Shown here: piece by piece, positions 23,832-60,450 of the stretch
Layout: each line of letters begins with the position of its first letter
Position numbering within the stretch: the first letter of the stretch is position 1
Assembly: GCA_023920165.1 (NCBI GenBank)
Contig: CP089275.1
Span: 2,914,001-2,978,000, forward strand
Direction of reading: 5' to 3'
Origin: Curvularia clavata
Lineage: Eukaryota
Length of the DNA: 64,000 bases
Program-made: the position numbers and the translations under genes
Notes under the pieces: generated by a model
Database searches by the model: none
The model's input: only the letters and a program-made list of their open reading frames with translations
What the model was told of the DNA's origin: nothing

Positions 23832-23837
23832 CCAGAG

Positions 23838-27500: not shown

Positions 27501-27923
27501 ATGGAGCCCGCGCTCGACGTCCTAGCCACCTTCGAGACGCTGGCCAACAAAAAAGATGAGAAAGCACGCTATGCTGTACGCAGCGTTCTCGAGCAAGAAT
27601 GGCGGAAAGAATCTGCAATCCGTGAGCAAGCTAATCGCAAACGCCGTGGCGGTCAAGACGAGCTTGACGACGAACCCGAAGTCGGAAAGAAGGATGAGAT
27701 GACCACAGAAGAAAAGATTGCAGCAGGGAACAAGAAAGCTGTCAAGCGCGATTTCTTCGGGAGAGTGGTTCAAGAGACGACTGCAAGTAAAAAAGAAACG
27801 AAGCATCATGAGCTTGGGGAGATGCAGGGAGATGCGGGGAGGATATGGGTGTCATTCCATGAGGGATTCTCGAACGCAGTGAGAAAGCCTGTTACCATTG
27901 ACGATATCATGAGGGGTTTGTAG
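24586..27923 (+). CDS. CTF18: Chromosome transmission fidelity protein 18 (alternative RFC large subunit), 3 exons
   Basis: Motifs WTEKYRAKKFTDLVGD, Walker A GPPGLGKTT, EINASDERS, Walker B VVDEVDG and RPLILICND, with C-terminal KRDFFGR and WVSFHEGFSNAVRKP. Introns at about 24818-24864 and 26848-26898. Confidence 0.95.
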
Positions 27924-28347
27924 GACGCAGCCCATGTTCAGACCTTTAATTTACAATAGTTAGCGATTGTTGGATTGTGTATACAAATTTTGCCCAGCCT
28001 ACCCCCTGTCGATTTTACGTTCCTGGTTGTAGTCTTACATGTGCTCCCTGGCCGATTGGCTAAGATCCCAGCCATTAGTAGGCACCCACTTCTTCGCCCC
28101 CATACTACGCCTATATAAGCCTGGTAATGGGGTTTGCAGATCAATTGTACGCTAGTGAAGGCTGCAAGGCCCTCATAAGATGCAGTAGCTGCCACACGTG
28201 TATGGCTGTAGAGCCGCAGGATGAAACTATGCTGTAAGCTTACTGCCTCTACTAAACAATATAACCCGGACTCGCAACCCCTCGATTCCACTTTAGCCAT
28301 TGTACCTTGCAACTCTCAATAAAAAGAAGCGAAGGGTTTGTGGCTGC

Positions 28348-29496: not shown

Positions 29497-29829
29497 ATGT
29501 TTGGCAAAGGAGGCTGGACGCAGAGTGGTTGTATAAAGTGAGAACCGAGGGAAAGGTCGAGCACGATTGGGGAGTTGGGGCTGCGCAAAGTGCAATCTGT
29601 GGTTTTGTTCACCTTAACGTACAAGCAGTGATATGTTAGTGCTGAGTCATCATGAAATACATCACTAGGAAACTTGGGATGCAAAAGCGAAGGCATAGAA
29701 AAGTAGTTATCATAAGATCTAAAAAATTTCTTACTCAAGCCGAAAAAGTTACACTTGCTGGCGAGCATAAAACTATGAGTCAGTCAGGAGCAGGAGAAAA
29801 TTTGCCAGAGCCTCCTTTCCTGATTTCTT

Positions 29830-31707: not shown

Positions 31708-32589
31708 CTTGAAGAGAGGAGTGCTTCTCAAGGCTGATGCTTGAAGGTCTCTGGAGAGAGATGCTTCCGAAGCAGACGAGGTCGACTGTGAGATTTATAG
31801 ACGTATTATGAGGCTGTGTGTATTGCAAGGCCATCCAAAATCTTGAGCCCACCCCACAATCTCAATGCAAGTTCCGGGTGGCGGTGGTCAGTGTTGCTCG
31901 GTACTTTCGATGCCTGTGCGAGATGATCCACGATAGTAGACGCGCCCGAGAGGGTTAGAGGCGACGCGAAGAACGAGCTTGTTCGCTCGGACCGTCATGA
32001 ACCCATTCAAAAACATGTACCTGAATGATCCATTTACACATGAAGATCTCTCGGACCGAGCGGCAGGCTTTATTGTACCTCGTGGACGTCTGAAACAGAC
32101 TCGCGAATGACAGACGACGGTGCAAGCGCCTGATTGGGAAGCTGGGGAGACGGGAGGGTGGATTACTAGAACATTGGTCCAGTGACATCGGCCGGTCGCG
32201 TGTAGCGTTTTTCACGCGCATTGACTCTAGGGCGACTAGAGGCTGCCCGACTCCCAGGGGGAAATGAGAAGTGTCGCAAAGTCTTGATGACAGTGGCGGC
32301 CTAAGCGAGCTGATGTGCCTCGGGATGGGGTGCTTAGCACCATCGTCTAGAAGGTGGAGTCCCCGCATTTGACGGCAAAACGTGTTTTTTCAATTTAAGG
32401 TGCGGGCCGGGCGACGTTCTCACGTTCTCATGACCTCTTCCCCAGTCTCTCCATGATGACAGGACTGGTAAGCTTACTTTTATGCCGACAGCGATCCAAT
32501 GGCGGCGCGTGGGTGGGCATCGTGACTACGATGAATAGGGGAAGCGGCCGAAGCACGCTACCTTGTTCCATAACGGTGGGTTCAGAGAA

Positions 32590-32693
32590 CGGACGTACTC
32601 CGGTACTCTGTGCCCTATGCGTGTGAGTGCATCTCGCAGACGGCAAAATTCCACGAATCTTCGGTGCTGTACGAGAATGCGGAGCCGGGCAGG
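32590..32693. promoter_or_regulatory. Two AmyR-type sites CGG-N8-(C/A)GG in the amylase/AA13 divergent promoter, with nearby CreA-type SYGGRG motifs
   Basis: CGG-acgtactc-CGG at 32590-32603 and CGG-agccgggc-AGG at 32680-32693. GTGGAG and CCCCGC lie at 32354-32366, and GCGGAG overlaps the second site. Confidence 0.5.
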
Positions 32694-33072
32694 CTAATGC
32701 ATTAACTCGCGGCATTTGGGTAAGCTCGACTAGCGAAACTCGTGGAAATCATCTAGGAGACACGATGTAGTCTTTCAGGACGATATTAATTTGAGTAGCC
32801 ATGTGCTCCACGTTATGTGCCGACTTTAACCCAATCACCGGCTGTACAGAGACGGTATCCATGTGAGACATGACTTGAGTACGACATATCGTCATGTTCG
32901 AAGAGGTTGCTGTAAGTCGATGATCGTGAAGCGGTAGAGGACGAATTCGTATATAACCAGTACACAAATGATCCTTATTGTCATCCGTTGTGCCATTCGA
33001 CCACTCGAGTCTTGGTTCGTTGCAACTTTCTTCTTCCTCACTGGCCCTTCAGAAGAACATATCTTTTTTACC

Positions 33073-34377
33073 ATGCTGTCTAAGATTATACCTCTTCTCG
33101 CACTTGCGGTTAGCGCTGATGCGCACGGCTATCTCACCTCTCCAATGAGCCGGACAGGCTTGAATGCGCAGGTACATAGACAGGCATTCTCGACTGATGA
33201 GTTGGAGACAACAATCTGATAAGCGTTTGCTAAAATCTTCCAGTTTGGAGCCGACACGTGCCCGGAGTGCACCATCCTTGAGCCTGTGACAGCATGGCCC
33301 GACCTCGACGCTGCAGCCGTAGGGCGCTCAGGTCCTTGCGGGTACAACGCTCGCGTATCCGTTGATTACAACCAGCCTGGACCTCGCTGGGGCTCACAGC
33401 CTGTCATTACCTATAACGCAGGCGACGTGGTGGACGTACAGTGGTGTGTCGATGCCAACGGCGACCACGGTGGCATGTTCACCTATCGAATCTGCCAAAA
33501 CCAAGCTCTTGTTGACAAGCTGTTGACCCCTGGTTACCTTCCTACTGAAGCAGAGAAGCAAGCTGCGGAAGATTGCTTTGAAGCTGGAGAGTTGAAATGC
33601 ACTGATGTCCCTGGACAGACATGTGGATTCAACACGGACTGTCAACAAGGTCAGGCTTGCTGGAGGAACGACTGGTTTACATGTAAGTGAACGTCGATCC
33701 TGTAGGCGAGGAACGTGGACTGACACGGGGCAGGCGGTGGCTTCAACGACGGCACGAAATGCAGGGGAGTTGACAATGCAGCCTTGAACTCATGCTATAC
33801 CAGTATCGCAGGTGGATATACGGTCAGCTCGAAGATTAAGATTCCAAACTACACGAGCAACCACACGCTGCTGTCGTTCAAGTGGAACTCGTTTCAGACC
33901 CCGCAGGTATACCTGACATGCGCTGATATCAGAATCAACGGCGGTGGATCAGGCTCACCCCCGCCAACTTCAAGCAAAGCCCCTACGTCCTCGGCGAAGC
34001 CGACTTCGACTTCGATTTCGACTTCGGCTCCGGCGGCTACACCTTCTGGCTGTGCAGTCGCTGTGTCCACGGTATCAGTGACATTCAACTCCAAGACCAC
34101 GACAACGTTTGGTCAGACAGTCAAGATTGTTGGATCGATTGCCCAACTCGGCAGCTGGAATACAGCAAACGCACCTGCGCTGTCTGCGAGCCAATACACC
34201 TCCTCTAACCCACTGTGGTCGACAAAGATTGACCTTCCGGCTGGTACGAGCTTCGAATACAAATTCATCAAGGTCGAAAGCAGTGGTGCGGTGACATACG
34301 AGTCTGGTGCCAACCGCCAGTACACTGTGCCCAAGGGATGTTCAAGTACCGCTACTGTTGACAGCACCTGGAAGTAA
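33073..34377 (+). CDS. Starch-active lytic polysaccharide monooxygenase AA13 with C-terminal CBM20, 3 exons
   Basis: Signal peptide followed by N-terminal His ([14 protein letters not shown]). Motifs [29 protein letters not shown] and [17 protein letters not shown]. Ser/Thr linker, then CBM20. Confidence 0.95.
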
Positions 34378-36414: not shown

Positions 36415-36825
36415 GATATTGGCAAAAATCAGGGTAGGAGTTCGGTGGTCGCCGCATATACAAAACATTGGCCTATTGTAGCTCTTGTTTTTTTTATTGT
36501 GTGAATGATGGTTCTTGTAATACAGAAAATGGTCACAAACACAAATGAATGGAATGTTTCACGCATTTGATTTGATCGAGTATAAGACGTGATACTACTG
36601 CTAGTGAATATCCGCCTAATTCGAGATCTACCACACCTAGACTGCCAAGAGCAGTCAAGGCTGCACCCAAGTAGACTTCGTCATGGGGCCGCCAATTGAA
36701 GCGTAGGATGCACTGCTAAACACCATTTGCCTTCTTCGCGTATTACCTTTTCGTCGTCCCCATTCTCATTTCAGCTTTCAGAACCTCCCCCCAGCAATCT
36801 CATTCCTCAGTCAACCTTCAGCACC

Positions 36826-39521
36826 CTACTCTGCCTTCATCCGCTTAGTCGGACCCTCTCCACCCTCTTCCATTGCCCGCTTTCCTACTGCCGAGCTCTT
36901 CTTGGCCCTTTGGCGATCCTTTTTCAACGCTTCGGCATATCTTCCCGTAACCTCCTTGTCTGGACATTTGCCCTCACCAGGTTCGATCAGAGGCTCGATT
37001 CCCGCTACCTTCAGCATGACTGGTACATCGCTGAGAAGAACCCGATGGCGACCATTTTCTCGGCACCACAGAATAAGCGCGGTCAGTGGGCCAGCATCAA
37101 CGCCCGAAGGAAGCGACTGCAGGCCATGCGCGAGAGCAAGAAGAGGATAATCGATCGTCTCGTAGACGTCGTACGTCCATCCCTCAGCCGTGTAGCTAGC
37201 AACGTCTTCAACCGCGTCGGATGTAGGCAACGCAGTTGGCGCAGGCGCAGGCGCAGGCGAAGGCATACCCATGCTTGCATCTATAATTTCGACTTCTTCA
37301 TTGGCACCATGCTTAGTGACATCTCGCTTTCGTGCATTGAGCACTACGCTGCTAATAGTAGCTAACTTGGGCGCCGCTTCGTCATTCAGTGCACGTGTCA
37401 TGCATACCATGTTGCGTATGAAACTTGGCGTTACGCCTGCGCGGTACAGTCGATCAGATGCGTGGCGCCAGTAATAGTGTTGCGGAAAGAAACACAACAG
37501 CTCTACGATTGTGAATTCTGTCTCACCTAGGAGGGTGATATCGACGCTTGTAGGTGTCGCAACACTTTTCAGAGGGCAAAAGATCTTGAAATTCTTCCCT
37601 CTGGTGGGCTGATCTTGATTCAGCAATATCGGGTTAGGTGTGGAACTTGACGATAGCAGCCCAGGCTCTTCAGCTTGAAGGGCTAGCATCATGAGCTCTG
37701 GAATCGGCAACTTCAACTTGCGAACCGATCTTACAGCACCTGAACCATGCCGAGTCTTTCCTGGTGTCGGAACGAAGTCAACGACTGGGTTGACCTCTTT
37801 TGTCGATAGCCAACGCCATCCGTCGTCGAGGTCGATGACCATGTCTGGACAGTCACGCGCTTCTCGCCACGGGTAAATAGACTCCAAATCGAGCGGATTG
37901 GATGTACGAGAGCCGGCAGCACCATTGGATGCGTTGTTTGACCCTGTTCCTGATGCAGATGGAGCGTGGAAGTCGAGCTGGCCTTCCCAAGGTAATTTCC
38001 AGTCTACGCCGTCAAAATCAAATACCTCTGCATCGGATCCATCGCTCAGTTTGAGCATATCAGGTAGCATTCCATACTCCGGATGTAGATCGCCGCCAGG
38101 TACATGCTTGTGCAGACCTCCTTGGCGTAGCTCCTCACATGTTAATGGCAGGGGTCCGACAGGGGTCAGCTTAAACGCTTGGTGGTATGGATCGAAAACG
38201 ATAGGAAGTAGTCCGGACCATGATACGTGTTTCCAATTCATGGGCAGAACGAGCTTTGGGACCCGAGTTATATCTGGAAGTCCATCAACGATGGGTACGA
38301 ATTGTTGGTGGAAAATCAGACGCGGGTCTAATGCTGGATAGGGATAAGACGGGTGCGTACTGCCTCCCGGCGGATACTGTAGTTGCCAAGACACGGATTG
38401 TACAGTAGGAAGGCCTTCGAATGGTATAGGGTCGGACTTGCCGACAGCGATAGTACCCTCGGGTTGTGCAGTAGGCACTTCATCCAAATGAGGCTTCCGA
38501 GTAAACCGTGCAGCGGTTACGGTCGGCTCTGGATAAACAAGTATCAGCAGACGTGTAGAAAAGACAATATGCATGTGAACTAACCATTCGATTTCTGCTT
38601 TACGCGTAGTCTAGCGCTACGACGCATTGGCGCGGGACTGGATCTCTCTTCGAGCTCGCGGGCAAGTGCTGCATCACGCTCCACATCGTTCTCAATCACT
38701 TCGGAATCATTGCCATTCTTGTATGTTGCAGTAATTGCACCTGCTTCCGAGAAAGAGTCATGTAGATTTGGCAGCGACTGCCTTAGCCCTTCCGTAGCGG
38801 TTCGCATATTCTCTGACATGCCCTGTTTTGCGTCTTGAGCCAGACACTAATTCGCATCGGTGAAGGCATCTTGAAGCGGAATTTCGCCGACTATGAAATC
38901 ACTTGGAACTTCGGATGTGTTGCTTCCAATCGTGTCATCGCTTAAGCAGTTAAGAGGTTTTTCAGGGTTGTACTCCGTGAAGCTAGGGGTTTGAGGTGAT
39001 GGCAGACCGTGCCAAGGCACTGGCACATGTTTCTTGGTTGGGGTCTTCGGCGCCTCGACCTCATTCAACTCTTCTGCGTTGTCCCTTACGAAAAAGGCCT
39101 CAATTTTCTTCGTTTCTTGGCTACAAGCATAGTGCTGGCAGTGACTGTCGCCATCGAAAGCCTCTAGGGGACGTGGCGGTGTTGCCATTTGCTTCTGGTG
39201 TTGACTCGTGGTACTGCTGGTCGGTGTGAAAGTCAAAACAGAACCGGCGATCTCAATCTCGGTGCTATATTGAGGTGGGTTGGAAGGCGAGTTGACGTTG
39301 CCTGTAGAGATTATTAGTCCTTGCAATTCTTGTGTGGTAGCATCGCGAAGCCGCTTACTGGAGCTTATATATCCTTCCTTCGCGGGTGAAGGCGTACGAT
39401 AGGGTCTACCCATCCTTTTTATCGTTTTCACTTGTAGATTTTGTGGTAAGAGTTTTGTGAGATCTTGCTCACATTGACAGTGCTCCATGCCAGGTGCGAT
39501 TAGATCTAACGTCTCCTCCAT
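36826..39521 (-). CDS. Unknown-family paralog 1 with one intron (38584-38529) and one in-frame TAG at 38849-38847; may be a pseudogene or start later at 38819
   Basis: ORFs 38847-39557 and 38580-38819 are in frame across a single TAG. A GTTAGT..CTGAT..CAG intron joins them to ORF 36826-38574. The C-terminal domain carries the shared motif LAHGLQSLPSGVDAGPLT. Confidence 0.7.
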
Positions 39522-39896
39522 CTCTGCACGGTGAAGATGAGGATGAGGAAGATACACGACGTTTGGTGGTCGGGGAAACCCTAATCAATAGACTGAGGTG
39601 TGAAATCATCGTTCTCACTCTCGCCGGCAGACTTTACCGTGGTCGGACTCGAAATCACCGACTTTTACCAAACTATGAGTCTCGGTGAAGACAAGTTATG
39701 AAGTAACCGAGTGAAACACAATTGAATTATGGACACTTCATAAGGGAATTTATAAGTAAATTCTGGAAGACGATAGCAATCAGCATGAGTTCATGGGTTA
39801 AGACAAATATGCTATCAGTTTGTAACAAGCCGCCAGCAAAAGCTTGGCCGAGAGGGTGCGCTGGTTATGAAACGAAGTGCTTCTCTGCGCTCAATT

Positions 39897-41436
39897 TCAC
39901 CATGTACCGATTGCCGGACCCTCACCATCGAAAAATGGCTCATCTAGGAGGGTGAGCAGGACCCTCTGACCTACCCACTGCTCCTCTGCAGCAGGTCGGA
40001 TCCTCTCTGGAGGCAGGACGAAGCCATAGTCGCCCGTGTCTGGCAACTCAATGGTCATTGAGAACTTGGCACGGCCAGTGCTGTAAACGTGATCGATAGA
40101 AGCACCAGTCGTTGGATAAAGGGTGGCTCCACTGGGTCCAAAGACGTAGGTAGTATCGTTCTTTGACTGTAGACGGATTTCCTCGCTCATCAAAGAAGCA
40201 GTTTTAGTCCACATGCCTAGTTCTGGCGCGTAAAGCCTCTCCTTGTCTCCGAAGGGGAAGAGAATAAGCTGAGAGTAGCTGTGCCAGTCAATATAAAGTT
40301 CGATGCCCTGCTCGTCGCGAATCTTGCGAATCATCAGGTCCATGCCGTTATTCTCAGGCGTGTCACGGGGCGCTTCTCCCCTGTACGTCTGGGAGCAAGG
40401 ATCTCGCGACGCTCCGCGTGTGCTGGAATCCCAGTTCGTTTCCCAGTTACGGTTGATCTAGATGTAAGCAACAAAATTAGTACATTAATCAATAGTATTC
40501 TGAGGCTTTACATACGTCACGGCCGTAGCAAGTCTGATTTTGAGCATTGGCCGGTGGTGGCTGACGGTTCTTGCGCCAAAGACGATTATCAGTTTGGGAG
40601 AAAACAAAGCCTAGCATATGTGTGAGAATGTTATCTGTAACAAGGCAGTGGGTCATAACTCACCATCTGGGTTGACAAAAGGGAACATGTAGAAGTCGTA
40701 CTTGTCCAAGAACGATCTTGTTTCATTGTCGCCACCCTTGTATCCATCGACGAGCTGCTTTGCGATATACTCGATGACCTGCGAGACCTTAGTTCAGAAC
40801 ATGACACCATAGTTCTGGGGTTACCAACCGGAGCGGTGATCCATTCACGAGCGTGCACAGTGCCGTGGTAAACGACTGCAGGCTTTTTTCCTGGGCCATC
40901 GGCTCCCCAGAAATGCACACCAAATAGGTCGCGCCCCTCGTAAGATGTACCAGTGCTCGTCCAATTTGAGTTCCCAGGGAAGGAACTCTGCAAATCGCGC
41001 CACCAAGTGATGTGCTTTGCTCGTGTTAGTATGACCATTATCTCAAAGTATGTGAGCGTGGACTTACGTCTTCGTATGCATGGTAACTATCAAACCATGA
41101 ATCATCCGATCCATTCGATTGTCTTTTCCATGAATTCTTGACGTGCGATTCACGGGCGATGGAGTGGGCCAAGTTCTCATGTAAAGTCCGGGACTTTAAC
41201 CCAAGTGCATTGAAGGCATCCAATTGCTCCGGTGCAATGAGCACGTCCCATGAGCCTCGAGCCTCATTAAGAGTCTCATGAGGAATTGATGACATCGCTC
41301 GCTTCGCTAATGCCAAGTCTCTACCAACGGCTCGAAGGCGATGGACCTGGTAGCCATCGTAGGTCACTGGTTGTGGGCTACGAATGGTCGCGCTAGCAGC
41401 AAGTGAGAGCCAAGCAAGGTTGAACAAGAGCTTCAT
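39897..41436 (-). CDS. Secreted zinc metallocarboxypeptidase A (M14A) with propeptide, 5 exons
   Basis: Signal peptide and prodomain ending near KR. Zinc motif HAREW, plus VNPDG, RLWRKNR, DINRNW, DWHSYSQ and TIELPD. All introns are GT-AG and the frame is intact. Confidence 0.94.
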
Positions 41437-42950
41437 GGTTGTCCGAAGCAATCAGTTGACGAGTGAAGAAAGAAATGTACGTCAACAGCCCTTCCTTTAT
41501 ATCCTTGTAGTATTACTGCTTGGCGGACTGAGGCGGGATCGTATTCTAACAAACAAGGAACATGCCGCCCTAGGCAAAGAGAAACAACATCGGTTGCCTG
41601 GAATACGTGCAGTGATGTGATATAATACGTCGAGAGGCACGGTTAGATATGGATGAGAAGCACACCGGGAAATGTATCATGTCGTGATAGTCTTGACCTG
41701 CCGTTTCTGCTTTAGGGGTTCCATGGCATTTCTGGGCGAGGATCAGCAACGTCATCATACTTGCGTATCTTGTCAGCCTTCTAAGCGGAGTACCCTTCGC
41801 CTGAACTGGTTCGGGCTTCTTCTTGTCAAGCTCTTTGTTCTTGCTCTGAATAACAGACTCAATAGTAGGCTAAATGGTGAATATCCCAGCATGGCGTCTC
41901 CCGTTTCTGACGGTAGTGAGTGGGCATATGAAAGATGATATTGGCAACAGAACTTCATAATATTATAAGATTTGATGTCGTACCCTGGACCATGACACCA
42001 GCAGATGTACAATGTTGATTTGTTGAGGTAGGAGGCATTAGATCCGGGGAACCCGCACAAACGGATACATCTTGTGCCACACTAGTCATATCTGGTCTAG
42101 CGCATTCTCCCCGCTTTCTCGTTGCAGCAAAGTCATAAACGCAAAACTGACTCTCTACAAGTATCTGTTTTGCTTACATCGGAACGGCTTCGGACACATC
42201 TCCACCAAATCGTTGTAGATGCACAAACTCTCCGCGCCCCGGATCGAGATAGGATAAAGTAGATCGGCCTACCTATCCCTGCTCCTTCATTACGAGCCAC
42301 TTCAGCCGGCGAAGGCCAAGCTATGACGGATTTTGATTACAATAACGAACACAATAAGACGGAGTTGCCTCATTATTTCCCCTCCGATTTCTAGACAGCG
42401 ATGCTCTTTCATGAATGGCGATCCGACTGTGGACTCTTGCAATTGCTAAGTAAACATGCTTATTATCGCAGCATATATACTTAGGCTTCTAGCAGAAACT
42501 CAGTTCATAACCTTTTGATTCGACACGTATCAGATAGTTCACCTCCTACACCAAAGAAATCGACGAAACCTTCGGTCTTCCAATCTACGTTGGCAAGCAT
42601 ACACGCTTCTCTCGAGCGACTATGTTCCGATTAGTATGCTACACCTCACCCAAACATATTCTAAAACTTCGTAATGATCTCCGTAGGAGGCATCTCTTTC
42701 ATGGTTCAACAAAGACCTTTTCATATAAACATACGTTCCAAGCCAACACACAATGGCAATATACTGAGAAAACATATAGCATTGTATGCGATATATTGAC
42801 CGCAGTGTTTTCACAATGATAGAGTCGTTCGCAGTGATATGCCCATGGATTAATGGATTTATTCTGCGTTTTATCACTGGAAGCGTATACCGTTGTTTAC
42901 GCACAACTCTCAACAGACTAACCACGGCAACCCATCTGCGATAACGCAAA

Positions 42951-44732
42951 ATGACTGAACTCCCAAAATACTTTGATCGTGGCCCTTTTCAGCGTTCTGA
43001 TGTACAAGATATGCTGGACGAAGCCCAGCTAGACGCCGGATCACGATTTGCAGACATCCCACATGTACGAGATCAACTCCCGGAGTACCTCCGTTTCGCT
43101 TTTGAGGAATGCAATCGCCGCGAAGTTGACCCAGTGGATATGCTGCACCGAGCAATGTTCGCTGAGCGGGCGATTCTGGATCCTTACAATAAGCACCGTC
43201 TCGGATATGCGATAATGCAATTCAATGCACAAGTCCATGAACTGGAAAATGCCGTAGATTACAAAGCAGAAGAGAACGTCCCTGAGACATTGGCTGGGTT
43301 TCCATTGCGGGCCGCAGTTTCGAGGCGTGGTGTATCTATCCAGGCACCACCTATTTACCAAGCTGAGGAATCTGCAGAAGCTCACCAACAGCACGCTCCG
43401 AGCCCGCATGTAGCACCAGAAGCTCCGCGGATGGACGATGCTGGCCAGAAGACCACTAACAACTCAGCAGCGAAGGCGAGAAAGCCTAGAGAGCTTGGGT
43501 CACTGAACTACAACAAGCTACGCGATGCCCCATTTCCTTGGCTGTCGTTTCCTCCTGGTAATTTGACCATGGCAGAGATCACCGCTTTCGTTCCTCAAGC
43601 CATCAAGTCTGTCGATGTCATTGATCGGTTCCTCTACAATGGTGCGCTCTCTGCAACTCTTGCTGATATGGTCAATCACTATCGCACGATGCCTCTTGGT
43701 CCGATCGAAAACAACAGCATTTACCGGATGATGAAAGGCCCGATGAATGTCCGCGCAAAGACCGAACGCATATACCAGGACTGGACAGTTTCCAAACACG
43801 CCACGATTAGGAAACCTGTTGGCTTTGACCCTACCAGTGTGAGTGTTACTAGCTTTCGGACGCCTCAGAAAAATTCCCGTCAAGCGGCCATTGCTGCTCA
43901 ACAGCCTCCTCCAACTATCTTGTTCCGCGATATGGCAGAGGGTGTCAAGACTATGCCGTCTGGATATGATGCCCTGGATCTCACCCGATGCATTCAGTAT
44001 TGTGTTGAGAACAAGGACGAAAGCTGGTATTATCCTCAGGGTTTTGCAAGGCTGGTGAGTCACCTTGGAGGTGCTGTCGATGTTCACGGTGAACACCAAG
44101 ACTCTGCTGCTATTGATAGGCATACTTCTGGATTGAATACGCGCCAACCCCACAACCGCGATCGTAGGATGCAGGCCAAAGAGTCGGTCGATAGTTCGGT
44201 CGACGAAGATACTGGAAGCGAGTCAGATGAGAACACAGATTACGATGATGACAGTCATGATACCATTGCGGTCTGCATAAAAGACACCAAGCGCAAAAGC
44301 ACTGTCTCGCCTGACGACATGAATTTTGAAGATGATAAGAATGACACAATTGCAATCTACGTAAAAGACACAGACGCTAACAACATTATCTCATCTAACG
44401 ACATGGATGTCGATAAAGATGACGACAATGATACCATTGCAGTCTGCGCGAAAGGCATGAAGCGCAAGAAGTCAATCTCACTTGAAAAAACTGATAAAGG
44501 CTCTCACTCTTCTTCCAGATTTTCGAAACGCCGCAAAAAAGACGCACCGTCACGTGGTCGAAAGGCGGCTTTACCCGATGATATAGATTCGGAGTCCGAA
44601 AGTGACGTGTACGTTGGGCCAAAAAATAGCAAAAGAGCTGGTGTCGCGACCCGAAGCTCGTCACGACACCGTCAATTTAGCGGCTCGTATAACGTTGACG
44701 AAGCTTTCAACTCCGAAATTGAAGACGAGTAG
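42951..44732 (+). CDS. Unknown-family paralog 2 (593 aa) with acidic and basic repeat-containing tail
   Basis: Long intronless ORF with the shared motif MAEGVKTMPSGYDALDLTRCIQY and NLS-like clusters KRKK and KRRKK. Confidence 0.8.
   Translation: MTELPKYFDRGPFQRSDVQDMLDEAQLDAGSRFADIPHVRDQLPEYLRFAFEECNRREVDPVDMLHRAMFAERAILDPYNKHRLGYAIMQFNAQVHELENAVDYKAEENVPETLAGFPLRAAVSRRGVSIQAPPIYQAEESAEAHQQHAPSPHVAPEAPRMDDAGQKTTNNSAAKARKPRELGSLNYNKLRDAPFPWLSFPPGNLTMAEITAFVPQAIKSVDVIDRFLYNGALSATLADMVNHYRTMPLGPIENNSIYRMMKGPMNVRAKTERIYQDWTVSKHATIRKPVGFDPTSVSVTSFRTPQKNSRQAAIAAQQPPPTILFRDMAEGVKTMPSGYDALDLTRCIQYCVENKDESWYYPQGFARLVSHLGGAVDVHGEHQDSAAIDRHTSGLNTRQPHNRDRRMQAKESVDSSVDEDTGSESDENTDYDDDSHDTIAVCIKDTKRKSTVSPDDMNFEDDKNDTIAIYVKDTDANNIISSNDMDVDKDDDNDTIAVCAKGMKRKKSISLEKTDKGSHSSSRFSKRRKKDAPSRGRKAALPDDIDSESESDVYVGPKNSKRAGVATRSSSRHRQFSGSYNVDEAFNSEIEDE
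44244..44480 (+). repeat. Three degenerate 84-87 bp coding tandem repeats (DTIAxxxK unit)
   Basis: GATACCATTGC, GACACAATTGC and GATACCATTGC start at 44259, 44343 and 44430. Confidence 0.8.
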
Positions 44733-46034
44733 AACGATGGCCAGGAGGCATACGCTTTGGAGGACGATGGGGCTTTGTATGGTTGAGCCACTTGAAGTAT
44801 ACCGATGACGCACCCTGTGGGTGCGCGCTTTTGATGTGCACGCTATGATATATCATGGCCTATGCCTTCTATCGCTTGGCCTACCTTCATAATACATATC
44901 TTTGCGGATGTGAATTTCTCTCTGGCATTGCTCGTTACCTCGGGAGCAAACAACATACCTAGGTTAATATTTATTGCCAATAGATATTAATTTCAATCAC
45001 ATGAGGTGTGCTATAGATATTTTGCATTATTCCTCGTCTTACATTACGATGTTTGCTTGAGGTGCTAAAACCAAAGATTTAGTCACATAACAAAAGCATA
45101 TTCCAGACGGAGCCGAGACTTCCCCTGGAAGAAGAAAATAAGATCACAATCTCGATTCAGTAGACTAGTCATCCACAGCGGGTACCATATCCGTCATTAA
45201 ACATGTTGGGATTGGGTTAATCCACCCCAACACGTGCTCGGGCGATATATGTTGAATACGGGTTGACTATAGGGATTGAGTACCAGTGTTTTTGCCGTCT
45301 CTATATGCAACGTCTAAGGGCCGTAGATTGAATATTATGTTGCTGAGCTCCAAAAGTTTACAGCTAGCTACTTATCCATACCTTGCAGTTTATCTCTTTC
45401 CGCATAGCCTCATGCACTCCTCAATGTTTGCGCTTTGACTCCCTCAATCACTAGTGATGTTTCCCATTGTGTGCTGTCCGAGCATGTATTGGTGTCGCAA
45501 GATTGATGCCGTGATCGCATTGCGGCTCCTCCCAAAGAAACAATATTTGTTTGATTGGCGGGTAGCGTTTGCCATGACCCCTTAACCGCTCCTGCACCCC
45601 CAGAACCATGGAGATCCTCATTCATGCTGCGCTGGCCAAAACAGCCATGCGAACTTTTCCCCACCTTCAAGTACGCAATGGGCAACGGCTCGTTGTCACA
45701 CAATACACGATTGCTTCGTTTGTCTCATGTTCACCATTACTCAATGAGCTCCTATTACAGTGACGAGCGCGCTCACCTAGTGCAGAAATAATAAACAACC
45801 GACTGTTTTCCCCTACATTACGAAAGCTTTACCTCGTCAGTCACACACTCAAAAATTCAGAAACGAAGACCCAATGCTCAGCTGCACTACAACACAACAC
45901 AATCGAGGTTAAATCTTTATGACAAGTTGAAAGTCGAACACCAAAACAATAGCGGGCACTGCGATAACAATCAGCATTCAACCCGCTCCCGAATACATCG
46001 ACAAAACATAAATAGGGCTCATAGATGAGTTCCA

Positions 46035-46664
46035 ATGCCGCGGAAGTCAGAAGAAACGACTTGGTCATCCGCCTGCCATCACGTTGACCCATACGAATAC
46101 TGTCCTACCGTATGGCACCCGAGCCATGTTCCATACTATGAAGTACCAGATTTGACCAAGATTTGGGAGCAGCCGATTCCCTTTCTTCCCACGGACCTTG
46201 AGATGGGTGCGCCTACATCAATACAGGACGATAGAGCTATCGATAAAACATGGCATGATGAGTGGGAGGCTGAGCCCATGTCATTCGGTTCTAGTAGGCC
46301 ATTGACGCTCCTCACAAAGCCCGCAGACATCAATCTAAGGACGCATCCTCAAGACGCCAAGCGCGTTTACCTTAATCATTGGGACCGCCAACATGAACCG
46401 ATTGGCGCTGCTACACAACGACTAGTACTGCAAAAGAAGCAGGAAGAAAAGGAGAAACAAATTCTAGCTCGGAAGGCCGAGAGACAAGAGGAGAGGCGCA
46501 TACAAGTGCGAAAAGTGGCCGAGATTGTGGGCGTGATTGATCTCACGAATGACAACATACCAAAGAGAAAAGTCTTGTGTAAATATGGGCCTGGCGAAAG
46601 CGGGCAATTGAGCGCTTCCACTGAGATGTCAGTCCACGACTGGAGTCATCCATGGCAACTATAG
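46035..46664 (+). CDS. Hypothetical protein with a charged coiled-coil-like segment
   Basis: 209-aa ATG-initiated ORF with protein-like composition (QKKQEEKEKQILARKAERQEERR). No recognised domain. Confidence 0.55.
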   Translation: MPRKSEETTWSSACHHVDPYEYCPTVWHPSHVPYYEVPDLTKIWEQPIPFLPTDLEMGAPTSIQDDRAIDKTWHDEWEAEPMSFGSSRPLTLLTKPADINLRTHPQDAKRVYLNHWDRQHEPIGAATQRLVLQKKQEEKEKQILARKAERQEERRIQVRKVAEIVGVIDLTNDNIPKRKVLCKYGPGESGQLSASTEMSVHDWSHPWQL

Positions 46665-47122
46665 CTCGGCATCAGCTCAGTGTATGTCTTTTCCTTGATA
46701 CTTTTAATTCACTACAAAAGTAGATCACTCCTATGTGAGAAAGGGCCATGGCCTGGTTTGTAACTAAGAAAAGTTTTTTCGAATATGATTTCCTAACAAA
46801 ACAATGCTAATGTTGTCACTGACATGTCTCACTCTAGTTTTTTTTTTGATATGACTTGTATATTGCGGTAACCAGTGCGATTCACTACTCATCTAGGCCA
46901 TAGCGGTGTGTAGACATTTTGAGAACCACATATTGTCAAGGCACAGTCACTTTCAGTTCCGTTTGCAGGGGCTTCGAGGACCAGTCACTGTCTAAATCCG
47001 CGCCTTCACCGTCATATCCGTTTGCAAAGCGCCCCACAATTATTTTACTATATTTGCTGCCTTTGCTGCTACCTTCTTCCACCAACCATCCATCGAACCT
47101 CTCGCCGCAAGCGAGAAGCAAG

Positions 47123-49243
47123 ATGGAACAAGCTGACATGGTTCCAGCATCAGACGCGCAGATCACATACGCCGAGAACAAGAACGAGAACGAAACAAGC
47201 CAAGGTGCCGCTCTAGGTGATGCTTCGGGTACCAGTCAAGGCGCTGTTCAAGGTGCTCCTCAAGGTAAGGTTCTTTCCTCCACTTCTCTTGATCAATGTT
47301 TGAGCAATATCACAGGCTTGTTCATGACGATGAATCTCGGGGGCGTACGCCCAAGCTTCATGGCCAATATGCCGTATAACGAGTTCAAGTTCCCTAAAGG
47401 CGGTGCTATTAATGCCACCATTGTCGACATCATTGTCTTGCTTCCTCAATGGTTTCGCAACCCTCGCTTGTTGACACGCTTCATGAACAACGGCCTCACA
47501 ACCGCGTTTCACTACTACATTCTAGAGAAGTATCGTTACCTCAGCGTCCACACCGAAGAAGAGGTTGAGCGTGCCCACGAGCACCTCAGCACGGCGTACC
47601 GTAACAACATGCGCAAAATCGTCGCTTCCTGGACAAGGCGTAACCACGAGGTGCCACAAGACTGGGACACCTCCAAAATGGACATCCGTGACTATCTGCC
47701 TGAAGCTGCAAAGAAACCTCGATACGAAGCGCCGGAATCCATCAAGTTCAGTGACCTTGCCATTGGAGTGAAGCTGCTGCCCCAAGGCGATGATGCAGGA
47801 GATCTCACCCGTGCATTGGTCTTCGCGATGAACAACAGAAAGACTAACGAAGCTGGTCGCAGATTTCACTACGTGTTTCCGGATGACATCCATATCATTC
47901 TGAATCAGATTGGCAGGTCAGATTATACAGAGGCTAACTTTGACTGCGCAGTTATCGATCGGTACAAAGATGCTGTCAACTCTGCAAAGACGATGCGCTT
48001 CAGCCTGGCTTCCGGACCTGTTCAACAGACGGGTGGCTCGACGCATTCTCAGCAACAGCCGCCTCAGCAGGCTACATATGGGCAGTCAGGCTTGACACAG
48101 TCACTTGGACAGTCGTCAGGGTATAATGGATTTGGACAACCAGTCTCGATGCCGTCGTATCAACAGTGGCCTCACCAGGCCCCAGTTGGACAGCAAAGAC
48201 CTGCTCCGTCGCCATATGCGCTTACGCCAACGTATGGCATGCCTCACTCTTATGTGCCCAATCCGCATCAAAGCACCAGTACCTTCGAGCCCATTGCGCC
48301 CAGCCCGTATCAGAGTACCATCGCCTTCAGGCCCATGCCCATGGGACAGGCATCTATGACAACCCACACTCGTCCAGGCGCAAGCTACATCAGTCCTTAC
48401 ATCAACCGTCCCGAACAACATGTACACGGTGCCTCTCGATCCAACGCCCGACAACCGGCAGCAGTTGTAGCATCCGAAGTTGCATCCGACCTAGCGACTC
48501 GTGCTCTTGGTCAGCCCACTGGAGACCTTCTCAGTGTCCCTGATATCTGCAAGTACACAGGCGAGGAGCCGGTGGAGCCCTTGCAGTTCCCAAAACACTG
48601 TACTGAGGAGCAGCAGACGGATTGGCTCATGGCTGCCAACCAGAGTCGGAAGCTGGGCTCACCTCCGCCGTGGCTGGATCCACTGTCAGAACAGAATGGA
48701 GATACCAAGCAGCAGTCTACCGTTGGTACTACTGGTCCTCCTTCACCTTATAAAAAGCTAGGCTCACATCTGCCGAGGTTGGATCCAGTGTTCAAACATG
48801 ATCAAGATGCCAAGCAACAGTCTGCTGCTGGTACTATAGATCCTCCTCCACCTTGTTCAGTCCTTGCCGGTTATGATGAGGATCCACTCTTCGAAAAGAG
48901 TGAAGATGCCATGGAGTAGTTTTCCATTGGTGCCACTGATCCTTCTTTGCCTTCTTCAGTCTTTGCCGGCCTTGACGAGGAGCTACTGTTTGGACAGCAT
49001 GGAGATATCATGCAACAGTTCGCTACTGATAACATCGATCCGGCTTTACTTTTTCAAGGCTTTGAGAGTCATGATCAGGACAATATTGGTGATGAGGATA
49101 TCGAGGGCGGTATGGAGTTTGAAGACGATGAGGTCGAACGCGACGATGACGCTGAGATGGATTCGGACGAAGACGAGGAGTTGAAGGGCAATGAATGCGA
49201 GGGCGATGAAGAGGAGCTCTTCCACTATCGTGCTCAGAAGTAG
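47123..49243 (+). CDS. Unknown-family paralog 3 with an in-frame TAG at 48917-48919 followed by 107 further in-frame codons
   Basis: First ATG at 47123. Shared motif LAIGVKLLPQGDDAGDLTRALVF and a Gln/Pro-rich middle. ORF 48947-49243 is in the same frame and continues the same repeat array. Confidence 0.8.
48650..49050 (+). repeat. Four degenerate 99-105 bp coding tandem repeats spanning the in-frame stop
   Basis: Aligned cores: GAT ACC AAG CAG CAG TCT (48701), GAT GCC AAG CAA CAG TCT (48806), GAT GCC ATG GAG TAG TTT (48905) and GAT ATC ATG CAA CAG TTC (49004). Confidence 0.8.
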
Positions 49244-52200
49244 GTGCGGGAGCGGGTTACGGAGCGACGTTGCGCCTGATGGTGTTGGGCTCGTTGCAAT
49301 GTTCTGTGAAGCGAACGATCAGTTGTGTTCCTAGTCTTGAGAATTCTGACTGGGTTGTTCTGAGCTTGAGGATTTCGACTGGGTGGTTCTCACTTGGTCA
49401 TCCTCGCTGGATCACTCTGACTGGTTCTCACTGTGTAACTCTGGCTATATAATTTATGGATGGGTAAAACACTCGATGGTGGAGGGCATTCCGGCACGTT
49501 CATGAGCTGTGAGAGAGAGTGGAACTTGCTACCATGTCAGCACCCTGTCTATCCTCTCACACATTGCGTTCTATACCCAGCCAGACACGAGCATCATGAT
49601 AGGAAATGAACTAGCACACTTTACTCGTGTTCAGCTTGGGATGCACCGTGAGCTCAGCGAATACCACAGCGTACTCGCAATGAGGCCTATCCTCCCTTAC
49701 CTTCACCGCACTTCCTGACAGTGTCACGTGACGAATCCTTCACCAGCTCAACCACCCACCGCCAATTACACCTTGTCAGTCGCAGCTGTACTTTCGGCCC
49801 CCAACAAAACGCCAGCCCCAAAGCCCCATCTAGACTGCCTACGTGCCTCTGCACCACGCTTCCCCCTCGTCCTGCGCTCAATTACCGCCCATGCAGCCTC
49901 CCCACCTATTACCTCACTCCAAGCCAGCATCGCAGTGTCACAACCCATGCCACTACATCATGACCGCCCGCCATCATCTAAAAACGGAAGATCGCCCTTC
50001 CCTTTCGCTTACCCCTGTCGCACGTCCCACGTCGGCCGCCCCAGCCCAACCCAGCCAGCCCAATGCCAATTCGCAGCCACCCAAACCCCAGTCCGCCACG
50101 CCCGCCCGTTTCGAAACAGGGAAACTGATAGAATGAAAAAAGTAAAAGGGAAGGATTCCAAAGGGGCCCTTGTCCAGCTGGAAAAGCAGGCGGTAGCCAC
50201 GGGCTGAAGCAAAACGAACAGCGTTTAGCGAACGGGCAGATACGGAACTAGGGGACGGGATGCAACACGGGCCCTAAATTTTTCCTTGGTGTCTATTTTC
50301 CCCTCTGTAACGTGAACCTCGGCGAGGCGGAAAACAAGGCGTGGTGGTGTGTGTTTGTACATAATGTGGGTTTTTGGCGAACAGAATTAGGAGGGGACAA
50401 AAGCCTCGGCAAGGCAGAAAAGCGGAAAAGGGTAGCGGGAACACGAAAAGAAAAAAAACGAGGTTACGGTAAAGGTAAGTGGGGCTGTCAGCACCGAAGT
50501 CGTCCAAATGGGGGAATCAGAGGACGGAATGAATGGGCGAATTCTTCGGACGCGCTGCTCTGGTGACTCGCATCCCGACGCGAGCGGCAAGTTAGGTACT
50601 AGTAGTTGGAGCTTTTCGGCCTTGCCATGATTGCCATATGGCCCGACTAGGCTGTAGTCACGGCTTCGCCATCGAGTTTCCGTCGTTCTTTTTTCCTTAA
50701 ACAGCCATCTACCGGGGGGATAAAAGAGAGGAAAAAACGTGGAATTATGCACGACTCCAAAAACATAAAACAACCCACGACGCCGGGTCAGGTCACTAGT
50801 AGAGACATGGGAAAAGCGCCTCGTGACATGGTTTTCTCTGCTAGGCGCGCGCAGATGTAGATCCGGCGCTGGGCAAAAGCAAAGTAAAAGAAAGCCATTC
50901 TTCCATCGACAATAAGTACATCGCCGACTTACAAAATACACCAGCTATTGAATGCACTTGCTTGCGCGTTTGAACTAAAATGGTTTCCATTGGTACTGGA
51001 CACACGCGCCCTCTCCCGCCACGTAGCCCCAGGCCATTTCAAGCGAAGGATTCCGGATGGCCAGCGATCCGAATCCCAAACTGGACAAGGGCAGCAGCAA
51101 ATCATATCAACTGAAGTCTTTTTTTGTACTGCGTCCTACCTCGTTCTGGGTCACATGGTCAAATAGACTTTTTAGATTGCGAGCCTCACAGCTGTACTCT
51201 AAACATTTGTCACGGTAGATAAGGGTACAGGGTAGGGCTAGGGATGAAGCGAGAAGGAAGGCAAAGCGGATGCAAGAAGGAAAAAAGAAAAGAGAGAGAA
51301 GCTACCTGATTCAGGATAGATACCTAGGCGCTGGCTCGAGAGCCGCAGTGAGGGGAAGGGGGGTGGCAAAGGATCAGAGAGTGAGGCGTAGGGAAGGCAG
51401 GGCGATGGAGAAGTATGCCGAGCAGAGAAAAAGAAAGCAAGGAGGGGCGTAGTGAGTGCAGAACAGTGCGATGCGTAATGTTTTGCAGGCAGTAGGTGAT
51501 TGACTGGATGGATATGCCGTCTCATTTCAGTTCACGTCAGTGCAAGTATGCATACCATGCAATGCCACGGCTTCGTCCAGACTGGCTACCCAAGGAAGGA
51601 AACATCGCTGTCTAAATTTTGCAATGCATCACTGTCTTTTGTCCCACTCCTACCGTCATCATCTGCATCTGCGTTCTCAACCTCTCAACTCACGAATCCC
51701 CTTCTAATCCACCCATACACACCAATGCCCAGGCACACCGATGCCCATACCTATCCCTATCTCCTTCTGCTGTCATGCCCCCGCCCTGCAAACTACACCT
51801 CCCAACCTACCCTCCATCTCAAATCCCGAAATACATGCAAGACCACAGCAAACCTCAGCATCGAGCACGACATCATCACGTCATTCACCTGCATCCAGCT
51901 ACCCCTCTCCTCCCTGTCCCTTACCATTGGCTCCACTGAATGTTGCTGATTGTTGATATGTATACATGTTGTAAATAAAATAGATTAGAAATCTCAACTA
52001 GCACCTTGTCTCCAGAGCCAAAAAAATAAAAATGGGAGAAAAGTACAGAAACCATATACGTGCACACATGTGGAGACAAACAAATATTCAGTCTCCTTCC
52101 TATTTATTCGTATCTCGTGAAGAGAAAAGCAGGGGAGTGAAGAAAGTCTAATAATTTAAAATCATTTGTTTAGTAGTGATGTCGTGAGAAGATAAAATAT

Positions 52201-58791: not shown

Positions 58792-58835
58792 GTATGTATG
58801 TATGTATGTATGGATGGATGGATGGATGGATGGAT
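58792..58835. repeat. Compound microsatellite (GTAT)5(GGAT)6
   Basis: Read directly from the sequence. Confidence 0.95.
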
Positions 58836-60170: not shown

Positions 60171-60450
60171 CAGCCTCACTCGGATCGAGATGATAGCGTC
60201 ACACACCCTCTACGATACCCGCGCTGCAAAGGCACGAGATGATGCACCCCAGTCGAGGCACGTCGGCGATACACTCCACCTAGCCAAAGCTGGCTGACGA
60301 CGTCTTTTGGCAATCAACGGTTTTTCTGCTTCCCAAAACGTCGTCGACTGCCCCTCTGCGCATGCCGAAACGGGCCCTCGGACTGGGGCTAACAGTATTC
60401 CAAATGCTACGCCCGCCGCTGACTGGTGCACCTCTCCCACATGAGCGGAC

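Follow-up and report, generated by a model that had tools for sequence, protein, structure and literature searches.

The region under study lies within a 64-kb stretch of Curvularia clavata DNA (the window) and holds three paralogous genes, P1, P2 and P3, interspersed with two others. P1 (36826..38819) and a gene for an M14 zinc carboxypeptidase (39897..41436; PF00246, E 2.8e-35 and 2.5e-11; four introns, from RNA joints) are on the minus strand, followed on the plus strand by P2 (42951..44732), a small open reading frame (ORF; 46035..46664) and P3 (47123..48919). The 593-aa product of P2 comprises a conserved N-terminal region, the domain shared by all three proteins and an acidic tail, rich in Ser and Asp, in which three NDTIAV-type repeats and KRRKK clusters occur; that of P3 (598 aa) has the shared domain and then a long Q/P/S-rich tail. 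P1 and P3 are transcribed in a close relative, and P1 is spliced there: spliced RNA contigs span both genes in four of four runs (two studies), those across P3 running unbroken from 47056 or 47123 to 49303 without a joint, and P2 was not covered in these runs. The 582-aa ORF first taken for P1 (36826-38574, minus strand) does not begin at the true N-terminus, because its ATG at 38574 falls inside an intron (38529..38584) revealed by the contigs; the joint 38528->38585, present in four of four runs, skips 56 nucleotides (CT..AC) and leaves intron ends of GTTAGT..CCAG (GT..AG, read on the minus strand). The reading frame goes on upstream of 38574, and an exon at 36826-38528 joined to one reaching from 38585 as far as 38819, where the first ATG in frame lies, gives an RNA-supported protein of 645 aa. 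P1 orthologs are 680 to 810 aa long and start further upstream than 38819, and part of an upstream minus-strand ORF (38847..39521, MGRPYRTPSP...) is homologous to their N-terminus (consensus MxMGxxYRTPSP); this ORF does not share the main P1 frame and has a second intron at 39302-39358 (RNA joint 39300->39358). The small ORF encodes 209 aa without a Pfam match and represents a separate, conserved, unnamed family, being 42% identical (E 3e-27) to its positional counterpart in a related metagenome locus (L028) and found also in three others (L004, L007, L013). The NCBI model yc1106_02782 joins it to P3, and the corresponding part is absent from all P3 ortholog proteins compared.

Homology of the three ORFs through one domain of about 200 aa, as claimed in the preliminary description, is confirmed by sequence comparison. 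BLASTP aligned P2 with P3 at E 2e-13 (25% identity over 238 columns) and P1 with P3 at E 6e-6 (23% over 219 columns), and P1 with P2 at E 3e-5 in a 27-aa LPSG.DA..LT core only, with an additional collinear piece at E 0.089. Profile-profile comparison of three ortholog alignments, one for each paralog, was significant for P3 against P2 (99.7%, E 2.3e-26), P3 against P1 (94.4%, E 8.4e-8) and P2 against P1 (94.4%, E 8.5e-8). HMM envelopes place the domain at 36934-37542 on the minus strand in P1 (aa 345-547 of the 582-aa ORF), at 43539-44126 on the plus strand in P2 (aa 197-392) and at 47381-47968 on the plus strand in P3 (aa 87-282), differing by only about 20 nt from the limits first proposed. 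A six-frame HMM scan of the whole 64 kb matched these three copies (36922-37554, score 184.9; 43530-44135, score 231.6; 47369-47977, score 228.6) and no fourth. The motif blocks originally picked out by eye are in register across an alignment of 31 sequences from all three clades (A4) and give the signature FPQ...DR...NG ... LPxGxDAxxLT ... D....R[YH]. Nine columns of this alignment are invariant, the LPxGxDAxxLT loop contributing to them, and six are polar (R38, R57, D143, T148, D193 and R199 in A4 numbering); no His, Cys, Ser, Glu or Lys is invariant among the 31 sequences. Outside the domain, the paralogs had been described as unrelated to one another. This holds between paralogs, but the flanks are conserved inside each ortholog group, and strongly so in the N-terminal region of P1; the long low-complexity flanks of all three proteins are probably disordered.

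The domain belongs to no Pfam family and appears to have no structural relative detectable in PDB or BFVD, in keeping with the initial failure to assign it to a named family. With hmmscan scores at or above a family's gathering cut-off as the criterion of membership, the three window proteins matched no Pfam family at an E value of ≤1e-4 (weak rows at E 0.01 to 0.16, the best being SpoVR, whose 15.1 bits fall short of its cut-off of 27), and the 31 domains alone gave sub-threshold rows (best E 0.002; 17.4 bits against a cut-off of 27). A further 86 homologs, and another 42, likewise matched no family at E ≤1e-4. Profile searches of PDB sequences returned no significant match (best E 0.77 [PAF1], 0.83 and 0.68; a DUF1750 protein was matched at E 0.025 through a Q/P-rich stretch, which is not significant either). 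The AlphaFold2 (AF2) model of the P3 copy (pLDDT 91.8, pTM 0.87) describes a compact, mainly helical domain. Against this model, Foldseek found no PDB match at E ≤0.001 (best E 2.9), a BFVD search none at E ≤0.001 (best E 0.72) and VIA-align none of 48,161 chains at Z ≥5 (best Z 2.4, Tel2); an E2F/DP-type winged helix appeared in a single VIA-align row (1cf7_B, Z 2.2, rmsd 3.6 over 67 residues) that is within noise. The domain resembles lineage-specific fungal families annotated as domains of unknown function, which are likewise conserved within an order, carried by hypothetical proteins and built as a folded core with disordered tails; it differs from that general class in being outside Pfam, in having a model without structural neighbors and in belonging to paralogs that form a conserved linked cluster. 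It would also be a useful target for structure determination.

A profile search recovered 858 sequence clusters at E ≤1e-3, of which 259 reach E ≤1e-30. All named members among the matches listed belong to the Pleosporales; restriction to this order is putative, as 708 of the 858 clusters are outside that listing and unnamed. A tree of 277 domains resolved three clades (93 sequences for P1, 103 for P2 and 80 for P3) plus one singleton. Ancient duplications gave rise to these three ortholog groups, and the genes of each appear to be single-copy. The P2 and P3 clades each span Pleosporineae and other families of Pleosporales, which bears out the great age first ascribed to the paralogs, and named P1 orthologs are from Pleosporineae only. 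Identity of the domain among Pleosporaceae orthologs is only 53 to 72%, and the family is fast-evolving and apparently lineage-restricted, Pleosporales being the sole order in which it has been seen so far. Many major crop pathogens belong to the Pleosporales, Alternaria, Bipolaris, Pyrenophora, Parastagonospora and Leptosphaeria among them, and a conserved, expressed family without a known fold that seems confined to the order offers a concrete entry into biology specific to this group.

The paralogs were initially taken to have been kept linked, and gene order in related genomes agrees. Locus L028 has P1(-), M14(-), P2(+), small ORF(+) and P3(+) exactly as in the window, between different flanks; a short-chain dehydrogenase ortholog (52% identity) is on the opposite side of the block there, which indicates that the flanks were rearranged and the block left intact. 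The carboxypeptidase, identical in position at both loci, travels with the block as its conserved passenger. Of 33 related loci, 11 contain the domain two or three times; of the 22 single-copy loci, only one (L030) extends 5 kb or more in both directions, and a second copy is present in 11 of the 12 loci where the sequence is long enough to show one. The exception is a single lineage (L030 and L031) in which no further copy lies within 10 kb to either side of a lone one. Arrangement varies, being (-)(+)(+) in the window and L028, (-)(+)(-) in L016 and L022, (+)(-)(+) in L018 and a tandem pair in L025. Six loci (L016 to L020 and L022) contain head-to-head pairs with domain starts 385 to 700 nt apart, and the genes that neighbor these divergent pairs have no relation to the window's own. 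Locus tags or accessions of members are 1 to 11 apart in at least 10 named genomes (Alternaria dauci, A. panax, A. conjuncta, Pyrenophora teres, P. seminiperda, two Neocucurbitaria, Trematosphaeria, Corynespora and Dothidotthia). P1, P2 and P3 seem to stay within a few kilobases of one another wherever enough sequence is available, and their persistent adjacency across the Pleosporales suggests joint working. In Ohm et al. (2012, PMC3516569), gene order in Dothideomycetes is described as usually scrambled by inversions, and surviving blocks are argued to be selected. The block studied here is likewise small, with order and orientation kept in rearranged surroundings, and differs from the conserved syntenic blocks of that class in being made up largely of paralogs from a single unnamed family. 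A paralog cluster that persists in spite of such scrambling offers a case in which selection on gene order can be tested. We hold this descriptive account (homology, three clades, lack of a known family or fold, linkage, and transcription of P1 and P3 in a close relative) with high confidence.

As to what the linkage is for, we tentatively favor a model, short of an even chance, in which P1, P2 and P3 are co-expressed subunits of a single nuclear hetero-oligomer; its basis is the linkage, the basic clusters and the disordered tails. The shared domain would serve as an assembly module or a common ligand-binding module, the divergent tails would give each subunit a distinct effector function, and linkage, including head-to-head pairs on a short shared promoter, would be retained because it aids co-expression and co-inheritance of matched subunits. 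Divergently transcribed pairs that encode subunits of one complex are familiar from histones H2A-H2B and H3-H4, and the head-to-head arrangement is typical of stoichiometric co-expression. The six loci with paired domain starts less than 0.7 kb apart are similar in this respect; their products are related to histones neither in sequence nor in fold, and the pair in the window is split by the carboxypeptidase. As this gene separates P1 from P2 in Pleosporaceae, a single shared promoter cannot be general. Runs of at least three K/R within the last 20 residues are present in 80 of 93 P1-clade proteins (P1 has a C-terminal KRRK cluster), and runs of at least four in 64 of 103 P2-clade proteins. 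Counting against the nuclear model, a K/R run is found in only 26 of 80 P3-clade proteins, one lineage has a lone copy, a crude test found no promoter word of 7 to 10 nt common to at least five of seven upstream regions (window and L028), and the domain is not basic (pI 4.9, acidic, for the P1 copy; 8.0 and 8.1 for the other two) and hence gives no indication of a simple role in nucleic-acid binding. Since named P1 orthologs are confined to Pleosporineae, a complex of three subunits may not be ancestral. Of the original interpretation, an old, linked and unnamed family stands, and the co-regulated nuclear heteromer is carried forward as a conjecture, in which nuclear location, physical interaction and co-regulation of the three proteins are inferred. 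A bolder version, in which three subunits of unseen fold, perhaps with the small ORF product, form a nuclear complex peculiar to the order and rapid evolution plus linkage mark co-evolving subunits in genome surveillance or reproductive compatibility, seems unlikely to us.

Linkage could instead be passive, the three proteins having unrelated jobs and their genes being tandem duplicates that were born adjacent, never separated and not selected to stay together. The lineage-dependent arrangement, the entry of a foreign M14 gene into the cluster, paralog-specific flanks without common sequence, the failure to find a common promoter word and the lone-copy lineage all accord with this, and the family would then be one more of unknown function, its value limited to annotation, in the form of a definition for a new domain and corrections to three gene models. 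However, linkage has survived across the order though surrounding genes differ, compact head-to-head pairs recur in six loci, a second copy is present at nearly every locus able to show one, and inversions normally reshuffle gene order in Dothideomycetes, as described in PMC3516569; we regard passive linkage as less likely than not. It is very unlikely, in our judgment, that the domain, with a new fold, acts as an enzyme or binds a small ligand and that the paralogs are isozymes with different targeting tails. The invariant columns, mostly polar and including the LPxGxDAxxLT loop, and the compact, confident AF2 model would fit such a module, but no His, Cys, Ser, Glu or Lys is invariant, no enzyme family or fold was matched, low-complexity tails dominate the proteins, and the Arg/Asp pairs may be mere structural salt bridges.

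The preliminary description had also suggested roles in sexual development, genome defense or self/non-self functions, for which nothing specific emerged: the three window proteins and the homologs scanned contain no HET, NACHT/NB-ARC, HeLo or other incompatibility domain of Pfam. A fast-evolving locus for recognition or conflict, whether in self/non-self functions, genome defense or reproductive isolation, with the block co-inherited as a set of matched alleles, would agree with the lineage restriction, with the low domain identity within Pleosporaceae and with divergence from the close relative, in which the P1 exon differs at 44 of 1,914 positions, an adjoining stretch at 4 of 1,100 and P3 at 33 of 2,181, and 19 of the 38 listed differences that fall in the P1 coding exon are non-synonymous, 75 more differences lying outside the list; these figures rest on one relative. 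Orthologs nonetheless seem to be single-copy, with conserved order and orientation and not variable in presence, and we consider a conflict locus highly improbable. That the copies are insertions of a mobile element, as remnant or cargo, is scarcely credible and already disfavored: only multi-copy occurrence and lineage restriction speak for it, whereas the window holds exactly three copies, each from a different ancient clade, synteny is conserved, base composition is ordinary (46 to 53% GC) and the block contains no transposase or recombinase Pfam domain.

The N-terminal region peculiar to P1 (37975..38412, minus strand; WQLQYPPGGSTHPSYPYP ... FKLTPVGPLPLTCEEL), which has many invariant columns, occurs in all 93 proteins of the P1 clade and is absent from every protein of the P2 and P3 clades. 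Its AF2 model is moderately confident (overall pLDDT 58.7, with 68 to 83 at model residues 41-135 only) and predicts four short strands and then a helix, an arrangement that may resemble small SH3-like or Tudor-type beta barrels and perhaps the PWWP motif. Members of the Royal family have a five-stranded barrel, with an aromatic cage in those that are readers. Foldseek returned Tudor, integrase C-terminal-domain and ribosomal L2 rows (E 2.6 to 4.4, probability ≤0.15), and the best VIA-align Z was 2.7, to an EVH1 domain. In Alternaria burnsii, the gene model of the P1 ortholog is fused with the M14 carboxypeptidase.

An open reading frame call placed the three genes that share the domain, here P1, P2 and P3, at 36826-38574 (-, 582 aa), 42951-44732 (+, 593 aa) and 47123-48919 (+, 598 aa), on the strands and at the coordinates that the preliminary description had proposed. 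The common domain, read there from ordered motif blocks, proved to be real in all three pairwise comparisons. BLASTP aligned P2 with P3 over 238 columns at 25 % identity (E = 2e-13) and P1 with P3 over 219 columns (E = 6e-6), and connected P1 with P2 through the LPSG.DA..LT core (E = 3e-5) and a second, collinear piece (E = 0.089). Orthologs were gathered for each paralog at E ≤ 1e-3 (20, 42 and 93 proteins; 18, 16 and 19 aligned), and profile-profile comparison gave 99.7 % (E = 2.3e-26) for P3 against P2, 94.4 % (E = 8.4e-8) for P3 against P1 and 94.4 % (E = 8.5e-8) for P2 against P1. An iterated HMM bounded the domain at 36934-37542 (-, aa 345-547) in P1, 43539-44126 (+, aa 197-392) in P2 and 47381-47968 (+, aa 87-282) in P3, and a six-frame scan of the whole 64 kb with the family HMM found exactly these three copies. 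In an alignment of 31 domains from all three groups, nine columns were invariant (P27, R38, R57, P139, D143, A144, T148, D193 and R199, numbered on its first row), all of them within the motif blocks first described. In one family protein, from Lindgomyces ingoldianus (P0236, 1063 aa), residues 652-846 form a full domain and residues 128-209 match a second time, weakly and in part; the protein could have two domains or stem from a fused gene model.

As the preliminary description had it, the domain belongs to no named family. Pfam returned no significant match in the three window proteins, the 31 aligned domains, 86 further homologs or 42 more, and neither did sequence searches of the PDB with the domain profile (best E = 0.77) or with the full-length family profiles (best E = 0.83, 0.68 and 0.025, where the 0.025 match falls on low-complexity tails). 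The AlphaFold2 model of the P3 domain, built from the 31-sequence alignment, is of high confidence (pLDDT 91.8, pTM 0.87) and predicts nine helices and a few short strands. Searched against the PDB with Foldseek, it matched 0 chains at E ≤ 0.001 (best E = 2.9), and exhaustive VIA-align comparison with 48,161 chains gave none at Z ≥ 5 (best Z = 2.4), compared with the Z of 7-8 typically reached even by models that lack a clear match. A structure search of BFVD found nothing, and the ESM Atlas held no usable match for the P3 domain and, for P1, nothing beyond Ascomycota clusters named "hypothetical protein" (0.84, below lead level). On this predicted structure, the domain is one with no detectable relative among solved structures rather than a proven new fold. 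No paper on the family was found by ortholog locus tags or by lineage-specific and orphan gene topics in literature outside subscription journals. Since neither family, fold nor paper was found in Pfam, the PDB, BFVD or the literature searched, the domain is new as a kind. Lineage-specific families without known function are common in fungi; a distinctive point here is a high-confidence domain model with essentially no structural neighbour.

Against 1.84 billion representatives, the 31-domain profile recovered 858 clusters (50 % identity) at E ≤ 1e-3, 515 at E ≤ 1e-10 and 259 at E ≤ 1e-30. Tree building with 277 full-length domains resolved three clades corresponding to the three window genes (P1, 93 members; P2, 103; P3, 80) and one long-branch singleton, P0023. 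All named members came from Pleosporales genera, four lineages having been checked against the taxonomy, and those outside the Pleosporineae included Massarina, Trematosphaeria, Corynespora, Lindgomyces, Amniculicola, Bimuria, Paraconiothyrium, Lophiostoma, Lophiotrema and Pleomassaria; the 708 weaker clusters beyond the best 150 of 858 could include other orders. Because the P2 and P3 clades each hold non-Pleosporineae members, the split between them predates the radiation of the order, and the paralogs are old, as had been supposed. Named P1 orthologs were all Pleosporineae, and the P1 clade sits on a long branch. Identity of the domain to Pleosporaceae orthologs was only 53-72 %.

Linkage of the paralogs, read from locus tags and accession numbers, recurred in named genomes at distances of 1-11 genes. 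P1 and P2 were neighbours or near neighbours in Alternaria dauci (tags 005942/005944), A. panax (00505/00507), A. conjuncta (009463/009465) and Pyrenophora teres (03920/03917), and, given as P2/P1, in Neocucurbitaria cava (009140/009141) and Neocucurbitaria sp. (030050/030060). P1 and P3 were linked in P. seminiperda (9207/9216) and Dothidotthia symphoricarpi (11 apart), P2 and P3 in Trematosphaeria pertusa (11 apart) and Corynespora cassiicola (3 apart), and in Decorospora (181 kb) and Bipolaris oryzae (154 kb) a single contig carries all three. To check this independently, 33 metagenome loci surrounding relatives of P2, found with the P2 ortholog alignment, were scanned in six frames with clade HMMs. 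One of them (L028) carries P1 at 4297-4911 (-), an M14 zinc carboxypeptidase at 6789-7910 (-), P2 at 10511-11110 (+), a homolog of the ORF between P2 and P3 at 13551-13916 (+) and P3 at 14644-15252 (+), ordered and oriented as they are in the window, where a Pfam-assigned M14 carboxypeptidase gene (-) likewise lies between P1 and P2. Its flanks are unlike those of the window; right of P3 it has a short-chain dehydrogenase with 52 % identity to that encoded at 28297-29493, left of P1, in the window. L004, a second locus, has this block too, cut off at the N-terminal region of P1. Of the 33 loci, 11 carried two or three copies of the domain, and in 21 of the 22 single-copy loci one or both flanks were shorter than 5.1 kb, L030 (21 kb) being the only lone copy with long flanks. 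L030 (10028-10673) and L031 represent a divergent lineage with a single domain copy, which is split by an intron of ~90 nt. The 10 kb to each side of it contain no further copy, and its neighbours encode an alcohol dehydrogenase, a flavin monooxygenase and a protein with a CUE domain.

Other layouts were found in more divergent lineages: (-)(+)(-) triplets (L016, L017 and L022), a (+)(-)(+) arrangement (L018), head-to-head pairs (L019 and L020) and a tandem pair (L025). Head-to-head domain starts were only 385-700 nt apart in six of these loci, some of which are near-identical, so that they stand for roughly three or four independent lineages. Their neighbours (among them peroxidase family 2, Macro, SPO71-PH, TRPY1, methyltransferase and carboxylesterase) share nothing with the window. 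The proposal that the paralogs have been kept linked is thus borne out by the L028 layout, the 11 multi-copy loci and the spacing of tags in named genomes, and persistent linkage is the strongest part of the inference drawn in the preliminary description. Ohm et al. describe gene order in Dothideomycetes as normally scrambled by intrachromosomal inversions, and argue that surviving gene blocks were most likely selected for (PMC3516569). The second distinctive point of the family is that its cluster persists across an order in a class known for such scrambling.

Contigs from four public runs (two studies), from a close relative ~0.4-2.4 % different from the window, showed six deletions of 50-58 nt with GT..AG ends on the minus strand, and are read from these six joints as derived from spliced RNA, no listed source being on record as RNA. 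The joints define a P1 intron at 38529-38584 (-), a 5' P1 intron at 39302-39358 (-) and four introns in the carboxypeptidase gene; P3 is covered without a break from ~47050 to 49303. The ATG of the 582-aa P1 ORF falls inside an intron, and the spliced frame runs on upstream without a stop as far as its first ATG, at 38819, which makes 645 aa. Further upstream, an ORF at 38847-39521 (-; MGRPYRTPSP...) shares homology with the N-termini of P1 orthologs, lies in a frame different from the main one and stops at 38847; no splice joining the two was present in the relative's RNA contigs. The frame break at 38819-39521 could be genuine, or could reflect an upstream ORF or a splice form not represented in the contigs. 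The best database match to P3, the C. clavata gene model yc1106_02782 (842 aa), is 100 % identical over the domain and fuses P3 to the 209-aa ORF at 46035-46664 (+), between P2 and P3, through an intron of ~570 nt, removes 47267-47317 and adds a C-terminal exon, which was not located in a single frame within 48800-49600. None of these joints occurred in the RNA contigs, which begin at 47034-47056 over P3 and in all four runs leave 43010-46915, including P2 and the 209-aa ORF, uncovered, a gap that carries no information on whether these are expressed. The sequence of that ORF was also absent from all other 284 family proteins collected, and its reading as the first exon of P3 was tentatively set aside on this absence and the missing splice. 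Conserved as coding sequence, the ORF recurs at the matching place in L004, L007, L013 and L028, and is weakly supported as a fourth gene of its own within the block. Just downstream of P3, the contigs covering it contain a 90-nt joint with minus-strand GT..AG ends (49304-49393), which suggests a convergent minus-strand gene with a transcript overlapping the P3 3' end.

Each protein combines one compact conserved domain with long low-complexity flanks. The P2 tail is acidic and Ser/Asp-rich, and of the 316 residues in the P3 tail, 42 are Pro, 34 Ser and 32 Gln. A K/R cluster closes the C-terminal end in 80 of 93 P1-clade proteins, a KRRKK-type run occurs in 64 of 103 P2-clade proteins and a K/R run in 26 of 80 P3-clade proteins; the domain itself is not basic (computed pI). 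By eye, none of the three has a signal peptide, as first described, or a hydrophobic segment. P1 alone among the clades has an extra conserved N-terminal region (93/93 members), modelled at pLDDT 58.7 overall (68-83 at model residues 41-135); one helix and four short strands are predicted. Its structure search gave no significant match (best Z = 2.7, best Foldseek E = 2.0). A few SH3-like and Tudor rows appeared at E = 2.6-4.4, and the region has a possible PWWP-like motif; the modelled likeness to SH3-like, Tudor or PWWP domains is a lead only, and a PWWP/Tudor reading was set aside as without statistical support in the structure searches. In the P2 tail, aa 430-510 (44240-44480) form three imperfect acidic repeats ending in NDTIAV/NDTIAI, followed by K-rich spacers.

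We regard the descriptive account, of a new, expressed family with three ancient clades and a conserved cluster, as close to certain. No sequence feature naming a biochemical activity was found. The best-supported working model, which we hold tentatively, is that P1, P2 and P3 would be co-expressed subunits of one nuclear hetero-oligomer, with the common domain as its putative assembly or recognition module; it is based on the domain and tail make-up, the K/R clusters, the persistent linkage and the compact divergent pairs. Prediction of the three-domain complex returned "no answer" (score 0.00), with the alignments unused and the partner fold uncertain, and is evidence neither way. A crude exact-word test of seven upstream regions from the window and L028 found no 7-10-mer common to at least five (shuffles averaged 0-0.1). 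First among the rivals ranks passive linkage of functionally independent duplicates, a somewhat unlikely reading to be set beside the argument that surviving blocks are selected for.

A domain serving as an enzyme or ligand-binding module ranks next and seems improbable; across the 31 aligned domains only Pro, Arg, Asp, Thr and Ala occupy invariant positions, and His, Cys, Ser, Glu and Lys occupy none. More doubtful again would be a fast-evolving recognition or conflict locus, on which comparison with the close relative bears. Divergence was uneven within single contigs (window 36615-42622 and 47123-49303): 2.3 % for the main exon of P1 (1914 nt, with 44 substitutions plus a 6-nt deletion that keeps the frame), 2.4 % at 42167-42622 and 1.5 % in P3 (33/2181), and just 0.36-0.7 % in the P1 5' part and in the carboxypeptidase gene with its upstream region, the stretches adjoining the P1 main exon having 5/716, 4/1100 and 7/954 substitutions. 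The 38 differences listed in the P1 coding exon comprise 19 synonymous and 19 non-synonymous changes, a pattern that, as a count from an incomplete list rather than a formal selection test, indicates weak constraint or diversifying pressure. A mobile-element origin of the domain copies, last in rank and extremely improbable, was ruled out on base composition, the ancient clades, the presence of exactly three copies in the window and the conserved layouts.

Elsewhere in the window, 58001-62000 reaches a GC content of 0.61, against ~0.50 in the remainder, with a strong change in GC skew, and its ORFs had no Pfam match. Left of the cluster, 18816-34374 is a run of starch and sugar utilisation genes by Pfam assignment: a GH31 alpha-glucosidase (18816-21156, +), a sugar transporter (22169-23413, +), an alpha-amylase with CBM20 (29833-31239, -) and a CBM20 protein with a weak AA9-like match (33223-34374, +), among which lie an AAA ATPase (24822-26885) and the short-chain dehydrogenase.
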